A stretch of DNA of 64,000 bases from Escherichia phage GADS24. The translations under genes were made by a program, and so were the position numbers. This document shows positions 1-12,365 of this stretch, piece after piece. The stretch lies in the sequence record OQ703618.1; one strand, 5' to 3'. Numbering within the stretch: position 1 is the first letter of the stretch; each line of letters begins with the position of its first letter. Under the pieces are notes generated by a model, which ran no database searches, was not told the DNA's origin, and was given only the letters and a program-made list of their open reading frames with translations.

Positions 1-297
1 GCGAACTGCATAACCGGATACACGGATGGTCAGCTGCGGATATTTTTCCGGATGCTTAACTGCATCTTCCAGAGTTTCACGACGCAGAACGTTAACGTTC
101 AGGTGTTGACCACCTTCAATTTTAACTTTAGGTTGATGTTCAATTTCAATTTCACGGGCATTCAAACCGTAGAAAATTTCCGGGTCTACAATAGCGTCTT
201 CTTTAAAAGTCTTAGAGACGATAATCCGGGCTTGAGTACCGTCTTCAAAATAAATAGTGCCTTTATGTGCACCTTCAAGAATTTGATATGCTTTCAT
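1..297 (-). CDS. GrcA/YfiD-like autonomous glycyl-radical cofactor (T4 Y06I-like); 3' end beyond window start
   Basis: Minus-strand ORF from ATG at 295-297 with GAGG SD; translation ends ...[40 protein letters not shown], matching the E. coli GrcA glycyl-radical motif; frame runs off the window edge. Confidence 0.8.
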
Positions 298-303
298 ATA
301 ACC

Positions 304-612
304 TCAATTAGAAAATAAATTTATCCAAGTCTTTTCTTTAATCAAAAATGGGTCGGAATTAAACGCCATTAAACTTTGAGTGATTAATCCCTTAAATGGC
401 CCATCAATAAATTCCATTTTGAAATGCGGAATACTAGTCATTAACCGTGTATTAGGAGCAGTACAAAGAACATGCTGCCCTGCGAACGGACCTTTAGTCA
501 AACGATATCGTTTAGGTTTAAAATGGTAGATCTCGTAATTTTCTACAAGAGCCCTTTTATTGCATACTGGGCTGTTATAACAATACTCAAAAACTTCAAT
601 AGTGGTCATCAT
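304..612 (-). CDS. hypothetical protein (102 aa)
   Basis: ORF track 304..675; likely start at ATG 610-612, which overlaps the upstream TGA (ATGATGA). Confidence 0.45.
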   Translation of the reverse strand: MMTTIEVFEYCYNSPVCNKRALVENYEIYHFKPKRYRLTKGPFAGQHVLCTAPNTRLMTSIPHFKMEFIDGPFKGLITQSLMAFNSDPFLIKEKTWINLFSN

Positions 613-1148
613 TGCATTCCAATCACAAAAAATTGAGGACGAGCAATACCGCCGATGCAATATTTGCTTTTGCAACAGTACTGTACTGATTTAATATGGA
701 CATTGTAAATCTTATCCATATCAGGAGCTTTAATAGGCTCGTCAATTATATACAGAATACGAGAAAGCGTTAATCCACGGAATTTAGAACCTTCATTGCC
801 AATAAAACTACGGACAGAATCAGTAAATAAACGGAATCGAATATCGTCGCTAGAATAACGAGAAAATTCTTTTTTAATATTGTCAGCAGAAATTTTAGAA
901 TAAGCTGAAGTATTAGAAAGAACAATAACTGTTCCACCATCGTGCAGCCAATTAACGGCAAAATTAGTTACTGCAGTTGATTTACCGGATTGTCTGCCAC
1001 CATCTAAACGAAGTGTACAGTACTGCTTGAGTACGTCTTCAAATGGTGGGATATAACCGTTCTTACAAATTTCTTCTACTCTAGCATCAGAATGGTGTGT
1101 AAAAGCATTCATCAGGGATAGATAAGGTCCAGTTAAAAATGTTCTCAT
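609..1148 (-). CDS. P-loop NTPase-like hypothetical protein
   Basis: Walker A-like GGRQSGKST and Walker B-like ILYIIDE; start moved to ATG 1146-1148 preceded by AAGAGAAATAAT SD-like sequence. Confidence 0.5.
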   Translation of the reverse strand: MRTFLTGPYLSLMNAFTHHSDARVEEICKNGYIPPFEDVLKQYCTLRLDGGRQSGKSTAVTNFAVNWLHDGGTVIVLSNTSAYSKISADNIKKEFSRYSSDDIRFRLFTDSVRSFIGNEGSKFRGLTLSRILYIIDEPIKAPDMDKIYNVHIKSVQYCCKSKYCIGGIARPQFFVIGMQ

Positions 1149-1320
1149 ATTATTTCTCTTAAGGTTTGGGCCATTCCGTGGCACATGTTATGTCCTTCGA
1201 CTCGCTATGTAAACCCATTACCGCATTGCGCTCGACCTTATTACAGGTTGGAAAAGGTACATCACTCAGAGGACTCGACGTTCATGAGGAGAGGTTGCGT
1301 TTCCCTTTATTAGGCAAGAA

Positions 1321-1650
1321 TTATACTCTAGGCTTTTGAGCTTGTTTGGTATTGGATTCCCATGCGGCTTTGGTAATTTTGTTAGCGGCATAACCAAAGG
1401 CATTAGATAGAACACCTTTAGAGTTGAATACATCCAATCCAATAAGTACACCGGCTGTGTTAAATTTAGGAGCAAAGTACGCATTAGTTTTAGAAAGAGC
1501 TTTTTTCAATTCAGGGTCTTGAACCAAGCCATCAAAAATGCCTTTACTATTTACTTTATATGTTACTTTGGGATTTTTACCTTCTTCGATAGCAGCTTTC
1601 TGTTCCGCAGATAATGTAACTTCAGTGATAAACTCTTGATATGTTTTCAT
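1321..1650 (-). CDS. internal protein (IP)-like, capsid-targeting N-terminus
   Basis: Begins MKTYQEFITE, as in T4 IPI/II/III; AGGAA SD; lies in the denV/e neighbourhood. Confidence 0.65.
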   Translation of the reverse strand: MKTYQEFITEVTLSAEQKAAIEEGKNPKVTYKVNSKGIFDGLVQDPELKKALSKTNAYFAPKFNTAGVLIGLDVFNSKGVLSNAFGYAANKITKAAWESNTKQAQKPRV

Positions 1651-1675
1651 TTTGTTCCTATTGTTTTAATTTATG

Positions 1676-1990
1676 TTATTCTTTAGGGAAGTTTTTAGAG
1701 TATGCATCGTAAAGTTTATTACCAATACGGCGGAAGACTTTAGCTGCAAAACGGTTTTCAGGGTTTTTAATCATGATTTGCATCATGTAAGTTCCTGCAT
1801 CCGAAAGAGCTTCTTCATAGTACCCATTAATTTCTTTAAGAGTCCTACGTTTACCACCAGGACCATCAACAGTAATTTTCCATTTACCTGTAGAAGTGCG
1901 GCTCGGTGGCTCAACTTGTTCAATCCAAATATAACCACCTTCAACGCGTTGGTTGGCGGATTCTGCAATAAATTCTTTATACGTTTTCAT
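1676..1990 (-). CDS. internal protein (IP)-like, capsid-targeting N-terminus
   Basis: Begins MKTYKEFIAE; AAGGAAA SD; GTTTAC-18-TATAAT promoter upstream. Confidence 0.65.
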   Translation of the reverse strand: MKTYKEFIAESANQRVEGGYIWIEQVEPPSRTSTGKWKITVDGPGGKRRTLKEINGYYEEALSDAGTYMMQIMIKNPENRFAAKVFRRIGNKLYDAYSKNFPKE

Positions 1991-2018
1991 TTTTGTTTCC
2001 TTGTTTGTTTTGATAAAG

Positions 2019-2051
2019 TAATTATACTATATTAATACTTAAGCGTAAACA
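2019..2051 (-). promoter_or_regulatory. sigma70/T4 early-type promoter (GTTTAC -35, 18 nt, TATAAT -10)
   Basis: Minus strand reads GTTTAC (rc of 2045-2050), 18-nt spacer, TATAAT (rc of 2021-2026); upstream of IP-like gene 1676..1990. Confidence 0.5.
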
Positions 2052-2053
2052 AT

Positions 2054-2314
2054 TTAAGCTTTACCGCCAGAAATAATTCCGAAGTTGTTAAAATCGTATC
2101 CAATATCGTCAACATCTACTTTAGGGCTTGCTACAACATAAGCAATTTCACTACGTTTTGCATAGGTGTTGATTTCTTTACCATCGCCACCTAAGAAAAA
2201 ATACCCATTACGTTTTAATGAGCCAAAGTCTTCCGCATCACCAATGAAAGCTTTAACTTTAAATTTAGGACCTTTGGCATCTGCTTCAGCGATAAATTCT
2301 TGATACATTTTCAT
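2054..2314 (-). CDS. internal protein (IP)-like, capsid-targeting N-terminus
   Basis: Begins MKMYQEFIAE; SD AAGGA overlaps the denV stop. Confidence 0.65.
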   Translation of the reverse strand: MKMYQEFIAEADAKGPKFKVKAFIGDAEDFGSLKRNGYFFLGGDGKEINTYAKRSEIAYVVASPKVDVDDIGYDFNNFGIISGGKA

Positions 2315-2320
2315 TTTTCC

Positions 2321-2734
2321 TTAGTAAATTGATTTACCATAGTATTTGTACCAAGTAGGACGTTGAGCAATTTTTTCATCTAAGCGTGCTTGACTTATCG
2401 CAATGGACGCTTCGGACGGGACATAATTATTACGAAATTCGGCAGGGATGTCGGAAATATCCTGGACAGTCGTGTCCTTGATTTTGAAACCACGTTTCAA
2501 GCATTCAGCGATTAGCTCGATTTGACGTAAACGTAAAAATTCGAGTTTGTCGTAAAAGAATGTTACGTGACCTGTGCCTAAGATAAATGTTGGAGAGATT
2601 TTAAAATCCTTTACACGTTTACCGTTTTGAACATGTTTACGGACTGCACCAAATACGCGTGGTAATTCACGATACTCAGCCATAAGATGTTGGTCGGTCA
2701 GTTCAGAAACAAGTGTTAAATTGATACGAGTCAT
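2321..2734 (-). CDS. denV: endonuclease V (pyrimidine-dimer DNA glycosylase)
   Basis: [12 protein letters not shown]...[19 protein letters not shown]...[10 protein letters not shown] matches T4 DenV; start placed at MTRINL ATG (2732-2734) with GGAGGA SD. Confidence 0.9.
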
Positions 2735-2792
2735 AATTTCCTCCAAGTAGTTGATGAATGTATAGTATCAAAGTCCTTGGAGGAAGTAAACA

Positions 2793-3074
2793 CTATTTTT
2801 CTGAAGCGCCTGAAATATATTTTTCAAGACGTTGTTTCATCAGCGAGCCGTTCTTAGCGATTTCTTCCGGTTTATCGCACATACGCAACAAGGCTTCAAG
2901 CTTAACGATATCGCTGGTACGTTCAAATTTGCGAGTATCTATCTTACTAGCAAGTTCAGAAATACGTGCTAATAGACTTTCGGCTTCAACCAAAGCTGCA
3001 CCTAGCTTAGTTGCAAATGTGTCAGTAGCTTCGTTAAGAATAGATTCTGATAAAAATTCACTATATGTTTTCAT
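2793..3074 (-). CDS. internal protein (IP)-like, capsid-targeting N-terminus
   Basis: Begins [10 protein letters not shown] at ATG 3072-3074, overlapping the e stop (ATGA); ORF track has a 5-codon upstream extension. Confidence 0.65.
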
Positions 3075-3559
3075 ATATACGCTTTCCAAGTTCCTGTTTT
3101 AAATGTTGAGATTACGCGTTTCGCGCGATTAGGTGTCTGACGATACCATTTAGATTGGGCTAGATTTACTGCCGCTTCATCCCAACGTTTCTGTTGAAGC
3201 ATACGAAGAGAATTAGTAAAACCAGCGACGCCTGCTACACCCATTTGGAAGACCATATTGACCAATGCACATCGACGAACCGCATCTAAAGAATCATATA
3301 CCGGTTTAAGTTTAGCATTACCCAAGATTCCGCGAACGGCTTTATCAACGTCTTCATTAAATAGCTTTTCAGCCTCATCAAGGGTAATTGTACCGTTGCA
3401 TTTACGTCCGATCATTCTGTCAAGTTCAGCTTTAGCTACGGCTAAAGACGGGTTCTTTGTTACTAAATGGCCTATGCCAATCGTCCAAAAGCCTTCAGTG
3501 TCTTTGTATAAAGACAGTCTAAGACCTTCGTCATTACGAAGCATTTCAAATATATTCAT
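3071..3559 (-). CDS. e: endolysin (T4 lysozyme, muramidase)
   Basis: [15 protein letters not shown]...TIGIGHL...TGTW near-identical to T4 lysozyme; start at MNIF ATG (3557-3559) with GGGAGG SD. Confidence 0.95.
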
Positions 3560-12210: not shown

Positions 12211-12287
<77 letters not shown>

Positions 12288-12290
12288 GAT

Positions 12291-12365
12291 TGGTGACCCT
12301 GGCTGGTTTCGATCCAGCTACCTATCAGTTATGAGCTGACAGCTCTCCCATTGAGCTACAGGGCC
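12291..12365 (-). tRNA. tRNA with CAT anticodon (Met, or Ile if lysidine-modified)
   Basis: Hand-folded 75 nt: acceptor GGCCCTG/CAGGGTC, D-arm GCTC-AATGGGA-GAGC, anticodon stem GTCAG/CTGAT with loop CT-CAT-AA, T-arm GCTGG-ATCGAAA-CCAGC, encoded ACCA. Confidence 0.8.

Follow-up and report, generated by a model that had tools for sequence, protein, structure and literature searches.

The window analysed here, a 64,000-nucleotide stretch of Escherichia phage GADS24 (OQ703618.1), begins within a gene whose product carries a glycyl-radical region identical to that of the E. coli protein GrcA (YfiD). This raises the question of what a bacterial protein domain does in a phage gene, and whether it was captured once or has been taken from the host again and again. 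Neither the gene nor its biochemical role is new: the T4 homolog, Y06I, was characterised in 2001, and the RefSeq product name for vs.6 of RB69 and T4 is 'autonomous glycyl radical cofactor GrcA'. In the searchable literature (subscription literature was outside the scope), we found no published description of a nucleotide mosaic, of gene conversion, or of host tracking in this gene. We conclude, with a probability of roughly 0.85, that window positions 1-297 are vs.6 of an RB69-like coliphage and encode most of a 120-residue spare part for pyruvate formate-lyase (PFL), in which the N-terminal half is specific to the phage lineage and the glycyl-radical cassette appears to have been overwritten repeatedly from the host.

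The vs.6 gene of GADS24 and its relatives

The features of the locus are as follows.

1..297, minus strand: vs.6, the ortholog of T4 Y06I, encoding a GrcA-like autonomous glycyl-radical protein (from the translation, the alignment with RB69 and JN02, the identity to T4, Pfam, and TIGR04365).
118..297, minus strand: phage-specific N-terminal half, codons 1-60 (from GC, GC3, and the weak alignment with GrcA).
1..117, minus strand: host-identical glycyl-radical cassette, codons 61-99, EGGQHL...RVSGYAVR (from the nucleotide match to E. coli grcA).
4..24, minus strand: glycyl-radical motif RVSGYAV (from the motif scan and the alignments with 6OWR and the PFL chain 1CM5).
302..305, minus strand: ribosome-binding site GAGG, 4 nt 5' of the ATG (from reading of the sequence; the arrangement is the same in RB69 and JN02).

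The vs.6 gene runs on the minus strand as 99 uninterrupted codons from an ATG at window 297-295, and its protein begins MKAYQILEG. The ATG lies 6 nt past the stop codon of the upstream gene, vs.7, and the GAGG overlaps that stop (TGA, window 306-304); with its own ribosome-binding site, vs.6 is thus a stand-alone gene. The radical glycine is Gly95 (codon GGT, window 15-13); its counterparts in the alignments with 6OWR and 1CM5 are Gly102 (GrcA) and Gly734 (PflB). A six-frame scan of the 64 kb for RV[CS]GY gave a single occurrence, the one in vs.6. Pfam Gly_radical (PF01228) scores 62.3 bits on the GADS24 protein (E = 7e-17); this is far above the cut-off of 22.2, so the observation is real and beyond chance. 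The preliminary description had pointed to the RVSGYAV motif and to a C-terminal region essentially identical to GrcA, and the alignments that it proposed bear this out: residues 61-99 are identical to residues 68-106 of E. coli K-12 GrcA (39/39), and the match to T4 Y06I is 91/99.

The window contains 99 of the 120 codons, and its edge removes the final 21 codons and the stop. That the 3' end was missing had been noted, and it is the window edge that cuts the gene: the copies in Escherichia phages JN02 and RB69 are 363 nt (120 residues) long and finish with 21 more residues, so that the expected continuation in GADS24 is TTTAACTCTCTGACTCCGGAACAGCA(G/A)CGCGACGTTATCGCTCGTACCTTTACTGAGAGTCTATAA. 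Over window 1-3000, the nucleotide identity is 98.8% to JN02 and 97.6% to RB69, two phages of the genus Mosigvirus (Straboviridae), and we infer from these relatives that the last 21 codons of the GADS24 gene are probably as in theirs. A full-length gene without the radical glycine would have spoken against a GrcA-like protein; the closest relatives keep this glycine together with the complete GrcA C-terminus.

The gene lies between vs.5 and vs.7 in the early cluster regB-vs.4-vs.5-vs.6-vs.7-vs.8-denV, and the order is the same in RB69, JN02, and T4. Both this position and the N-terminus MKAYQILEG place the GADS24 gene in the T4-type vs.6 orthologous group. Over the part inside the window, its protein is 99% identical to that of JN02, 98% to that of RB69, and 92% to that of T4 (NP_049730). 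The T4 protein, at the same position and also of 120 residues, has the phage-type N-terminal half and the E. coli-identical C-terminal cassette; it differs from the GADS24 protein at eight residues, seven of which are in the N-terminal half. The remaining one is residue 73, which is His in T4 and Arg in both GADS24 and E. coli. The final three vs.6 codons vary with the phage genus. The gene was conserved in all six T4-like genomes compared by Nolan et al. (2006, PMC1524935).

Other parts of the window gave several observations of their own. The vs.8 homologue (window 609-1148, minus strand) has a Walker-A-like GGRQSGKST in its translation and is variously named 'endoribonuclease', 'P-loop containing NTP hydrolase', or 'hypothetical protein' across phage records. 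Upstream of it is a 177-nt non-coding gap (window 1149-1325) with a GC content of 44-47%, above that of its surroundings; T4 does not have this gap, and its denV directly follows vs.8. The gap showed no sign of a structured RNA (fold z-score of +1.6, and no Rfam match at E <= 1). A scan of window 1-1700 for promoters and terminators, with shuffled sequences as the control, found 7 promoters where 5.6 were expected, which is not above chance. Four small tandem ORFs on the minus strand (window 1321-1650, 1676-1990, 2054-2314, and 2794-3075) have near-identical N-termini, which we take to resemble the capsid-targeting leader of the T4 internal head proteins; RefSeq applies the name 'internal head protein' to just two of the four RB69 counterparts and lists the others as hypothetical. 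Adjacent genes for tRNA-Arg(TCT) and tRNA-Met(CAT) at window 12211-12365 (minus strand) were the only Rfam and ARAGORN matches in the window.

In BLASTP, the GADS24 protein and E. coli K-12 GrcA are identical at 52 of 79 positions (E = 1e-35). The similarity is unevenly distributed: residues 22-60 share 13 of 40 positions with GrcA and residues 1-21 are unaligned, homology being detectable from about residue 21 (ARIIVSKT in one protein, ARCIVAKA in the other). A PDB search with the full-length RB69 protein gave GrcA/YfiD (6OWR) as the best match (E = 2e-42), followed by PFL (E = 4e-26), in which residues 57-120 of Vs.6 align with residues 696-759; other glycyl-radical enzymes of the PFL family rank next. 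None of the 33 PDB matches at E <= 1e-3 was an NrdD chain. In NCBIfam, the GrcA family (TIGR04365) was the top match, and all matches were to the PFL family, with no ribonucleotide reductase among them. The TIGR04365 scores (157.1 bits for full-length RB69 Vs.6 and 109.8 for the GADS24 protein as contained in the window) do not reach the equivalog cut-off of 170, in the case of RB69 because the N-terminal half has diverged. Vs.6 is nevertheless a small (~14 kDa) stand-alone protein that has RVSGYAV with the radical glycine and mimics the PFL C-terminus, as is characteristic of the GrcA/YfiD family (TIGR04365 / IPR011140).

Vs.6 falls 7 residues short of E. coli GrcA in length, and the alignable part of its N-terminal half shares only about 30% identity with GrcA, whereas the C-terminal residues match at 60 of 60 positions in JN02 and with one substitution each in RB69 and T4. 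The genomic contexts also differ: vs.6 is part of a phage early-gene cluster, and E. coli grcA lies beside ung and eamB. Compared with PflB (PDB 1CM5 and 1H16), Vs.6 corresponds over residues 57-120 to the glycyl-radical domain, the piece that a spare part replaces, and lacks the catalytic barrel of about 695 residues. At the positions where GrcA and PflB differ (PflB: TKEQQQDVITRTFTQSM), the phage protein goes with GrcA.

Homologues of vs.6 were found by tblastn in 1,588 phage records. The hosts of the T4-like carriers include Escherichia, Shigella, Klebsiella, Salmonella, Enterobacter, Citrobacter, Cronobacter, Yersinia, and Aeromonas, and the gene also occurs in T5-like Demerecviridae and in jumbo phages. 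The T5-like homologues (L094 and L095) begin MKAYQ like the T4-type proteins and unlike the bacterial MITGIQITKAAND, which suggests that the phage-specific N-terminal module has spread from phage to phage. The homologue in a jumbo Yersinia phage (L091) begins MTIKSIQIM and is more diverged. The deposited records disagree on the product, which is called GrcA or hypothetical in some and pyruvate formate-lyase, 2-ketobutyrate formate-lyase, formate acetyltransferase, or ribonucleotide reductase subunit in others; a single T2 record has it as 'tail sheath monomer'. These inconsistent annotations could be corrected in bulk.

A nucleotide mosaic with host grcA

At the nucleotide level, vs.6 is a sharp mosaic, with the junction at the first base of codon 61 (GAAGGTGGTCAACAC...). 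Codons 61-99 match E. coli K-12 grcA at 116 of 117 nt. The lone difference, CGT instead of CGC at Arg73, is itself a common E. coli allele, and the GADS24 cassette is identical (117/117 nt) to the grcA of many E. coli genomes. The 48 nt preceding the junction match at only 27 positions, and the change in identity is significant (Fisher p = 2e-12). The GC content changes as well, from 35.6% in the 5' half (GC3 of 25%) to 49.6% in the 3' part, against a window mean of 38%. In the full-length relatives, the cassette extends about 56-66 nt beyond the point corresponding to the window edge. Over the whole 3' segment, RB69 and T4 each match K-12 grcA at 179 of 183 nt and JN02 at 177 of 183, and the T4 cassette is identical to the CGT-type E. 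coli allele at 172 of 173 nt. The preliminary description had proposed that nucleotide identity to the host gene would date the acquisition; when this comparison was made, the 3' half alone proved host-like, with hardly a difference from the grcA alleles that E. coli carries today.

Such identity is not explained by a single ancient acquisition followed by purifying selection or codon bias. The same 60-residue segment is encoded in Citrobacter, Trabulsiella, Edwardsiella, Serratia, Huaxiibacter, and Pectobacterium by DNA that is 86-92% identical to that of E. coli, and the phages are separated from E. coli by a cassette dS of 0.03-0.15, as against 0.4-1.2 between enterobacterial genera. For the same cassette, dS between E. 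coli and a cryptic Escherichia clade is 0.07, on a level with the phage values, and between E. coli and Citrobacter, Klebsiella, and Salmonella it is 0.40, 0.78, and 1.1, respectively. Transfer in the opposite direction, from phage to E. coli, was also rejected: the two halves of E. coli grcA are equally diverged from sister taxa (dS of 0.067 and 0.069 to Escherichia sp. MOD1, and of 0.53 and 0.40 to Citrobacter), and the GC content of the cassette is host-like. As E. coli grcA itself is not a mosaic, the direction of transfer was from host to phage.

Among the 1,503 phage records with a match to the E. coli cassette, the identity to it is 95-99% in 628, 90-95% in 18, 80-90% in 318, and 60-80% in 539; the distribution is clearly bimodal.

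Probable repeated host input in E. coli and Klebsiella phages

Three sites at which E. coli is polymorphic, numbered 12, 39, and 102 within the 183-nt segment, show the E. coli variants again in the phages, in matching combinations. RB69 and JN02 have haplotype C39 (K-12 type), GADS24 and OES_C-2 have T39, Shigella phage SP21535 has G12+T39 (O157 type), and an IMG/VR contig (L104) has T39+A102 (ETEC/O104 type). On the E. coli side, the haplotype evidence comprises these three shared synonymous sites, with 4 matches observed where a rough estimate expects about 0.9, and parallel mutation could lie behind some of them.

The evidence from Klebsiella is stronger. A metagenome scan with a degenerate pattern recovered 63 bacterial-type and 4 phage-type genes, and the commonest bacterial allele (21 loci) was that of K. 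pneumoniae (99.7% identity over 2 kb to CP125156.1). In a Klebsiella phage contig of 165.7 kb (L181), the cassette is identical to K. pneumoniae grcA at 158 of 158 nt; outside the cassette, 9 of the final 22 nt differ, and the upstream match is 22/60. The cassette of a close relative (L176) differs from that of L181 at 12 of 158 nt, as against 3 of 180 in the 5' half and none of 22 at the 3' end, and matches a different, Raoultella-like allele at 156 of 158 nt. The K. pneumoniae cassette is found at 95-99% identity in 80 phage records, those sampled being Klebsiella phages, and Escherichia phages match it at 84-88%. A further metagenome contig (L254) has a bacterial-type grcA with a GrcA-type body, in which the last ~17 residues are PflB-like (TKEQQQDVITRTFTQTM); a bacterium may have converted grcA with pflB in its own genome, or the contig may be chimeric through assembly.

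No host-matching cassette was found in Slopekvirus, Pseudotevenvirus, Karamvirus, Krischvirus, Aeromonas phage 31, the jumbo Yersinia phage, or the T5-like phages, whose identity to the sampled bacterial alleles is at most ~85%; the alleles compared were those of sampled host species, a subset.

The alternative that survives best is one recent capture of E. coli grcA by a T-even phage, after which the chimera spread across phage genera by recombination between phages without ongoing conversion. The 5' junction is at the identical nucleotide in T4, RB69, JN02, and GADS24, as a single event would have it, although a junction common to all phages is expected anyway because the homology with grcA stops there. 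JN02 has three private synonymous changes that are absent from all 5,426 E. coli genomes compared, and two of them (A69 and A144) recur in other phages. Furthermore, RB69 and T4 are highly alike in an island that takes in the whole of vs.6 and thus the phage-specific half too, as phage-to-phage exchange would produce. In a sliding-window comparison of RB69 (L001, 2600-3700) with T4 (L004, 5250-6330), the identity is 90-100% in the vs.6 island and 55-85% in its flanks, and dS is 0.22 for vs.6 as a whole, 0.39 for the 5' half, and 0.10 for the cassette, against values from 0.8 to saturation in the flanking genes. Because the island spans vs.6, the whole gene has also moved between phage genera, relatively recently. 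A single capture nevertheless does not account for a Klebsiella phage cassette that is that of K. pneumoniae (158/158 nt) and not of E. coli, nor for two near-identical phage genes (L181 and L176) that bear the cassettes of two different bacterial alleles. The E. coli phages, for their part, have at least four E. coli haplotypes, and within Mosigvirus, GADS24 and EP32a differ at 5 of 117 nt in the cassette and at 2 of 180 in the 5' half. We therefore regard a single capture as unlikely.

The most economical reading of these alignments appears to be that, during infection, vs.6 undergoes recurrent gene conversion by the grcA of the host. Homologous recombination would time and again replace the cassette of about 158-175 nt with the allele of the current host, and the exchange would be confined to the stretch where vs.6 and grcA are similar enough to pair. 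As a consequence of such overwriting, the radical domain would stay identical to that of the host. In the T4-type phages of E. coli and Klebsiella, the cassette is thus probably a host-tracking one, while the N-terminal half and the last few codons seem to stay fixed.

The function of Vs.6 and the meaning of the mosaic

The preliminary description had named T4 Y06I as a homologue able to rescue oxygen-damaged PFL. By sequence and position, Y06I is the ortholog of GADS24 Vs.6, and the rescue is reported in PMC8683613. With reference to Wagner et al. (2001), that paper names just two PFL spare parts with biochemical validation, Y06I and E. coli YfiD/GrcA; they bind PFL that O2 has cleaved at Gly734, the PFL activase (PFL-AE) puts the radical on them, and activity is restored. 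YfiD's N-terminal half is needed for binding to cleaved PFL and for efficient activation (PMC8683613). As this half has diverged in the phage protein, its docking on cleaved PFL may differ from that of YfiD.

By analogy with this 92%-identical ortholog, GADS24 Vs.6 likely acts by the same spare-part mechanism. Oxygen would destroy the Gly734 radical of the host PFL and cut the chain there; the C-terminal domain of Vs.6, a copy of PFL residues ~696-759, would dock into the cleaved enzyme; and the host activase PflA, a radical SAM enzyme, would put a new glycyl radical on Gly95, so that the repaired PFL could again convert pyruvate to acetyl-CoA and formate. A T4-type phage would shut off host gene expression, and the infected cell would consequently make neither its own GrcA nor new PFL. 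Under these circumstances, the phage copy could keep the fermentative supply of acetyl-CoA and ATP going in the microaerobic gut. The benefit to the phage would then presumably be the support of host anaerobic metabolism during infection, as the preliminary description had suggested. A search of the accessible literature for phages mutated in vs.6 gave no in-vivo phenotype.

PFL is not the only conceivable partner. T4-type phages encode NrdD, which is likewise cleaved by oxygen, TdcE is a close paralogue of PflB, and structures of T4 NrdD are present in the PDB. That Vs.6 serves one of these other glycyl-radical enzymes, the phage NrdD or the host TdcE, is improbable. A role in nucleotide metabolism was proposed from the Gly_radical Pfam match (Nolan et al. 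2006, PMC1524935), but the C-terminal domain of Vs.6 is identical to that of GrcA and aligns with the PFL domain as described above, the PDB and NCBIfam matches are free of NrdD and of ribonucleotide reductases, respectively, and Y06I is reported to work with PFL (PMC8683613). Vs.6 may, in addition to PFL, be used with TdcE.

Still less probable is a decoy, by which Vs.6, with its altered N-terminal half, would compete for PflA or for damaged PFL and so lower or redirect the PFL activity of the host. The N-terminal half is phage-specific, and the corresponding half of YfiD is the one that governs binding and activation (PMC8683613); moreover, T4-like and T5-like phages share the MKAYQ... start, the jumbo-phage version being more diverged. 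Against this, T4 Y06I, which has an N-terminus of the same type, is reported to restore PFL activity (PMC8683613), and a strictly kept, host-identical radical domain fits functional replacement better than an inhibitor.

We give hardly any credence to the idea that the ORF is a C-terminal nrdD exon, a fragment of a pseudogene, or contamination of the assembly by host DNA. All that speaks for it is that the window edge truncates the gene and that part of the DNA is identical to the host's. Against it, vs.6 has its own ribosome-binding site and ATG, an intact ORF of about 120 residues lies at the same place in T4, RB69, and JN02, more than 1,500 of ~1,590 phage records have a near-full-length match, and independent genomes show one and the same in-frame junction between phage and host sequence. 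The nrdD exon, which the preliminary description had allowed for, did not hold up: the protein has no similarity to NrdD, the upstream gene is vs.7, and the 64 kb contain no second glycyl-radical motif. An nrdD exon or a second glycyl-radical gene in the window is thus ruled out by the PDB matches and the motif scan.

A functional spare part with a cassette renewed from the host therefore remains our preferred reading. The mosaic appears to show, cleanly and in a form open to experiment, that gene conversion from host to phage is ongoing in the phage family that has been studied best, with a cassette boundary that coincides with the structured glycyl-radical domain. If this reading is true, the phage spare part would stay matched, synonymous sites included, to the protein with which the host PFL and its activase have evolved. 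The cassette might serve as a natural marker of the recent host of a phage, and it would offer a measure of recombination between a T4-type phage and the chromosome that is being degraded. The mosaic also raises the question of what role the separately conserved, phage-specific N-terminal half plays.

Exchange of this kind is known from psbA of cyanophages, in which intragenic recombination between host and phage was reportedly described by Zeidner in 2005 and by Sullivan in 2006. In both cases, a phage would carry a metabolic gene of host origin that trades segments with host alleles. Unlike in psbA, the exchange in vs.6 would be confined to one sharply bounded cassette that corresponds to a functional domain; it is seen in T4-type phages of enterobacteria and gives 100% nucleotide identity to current host alleles.
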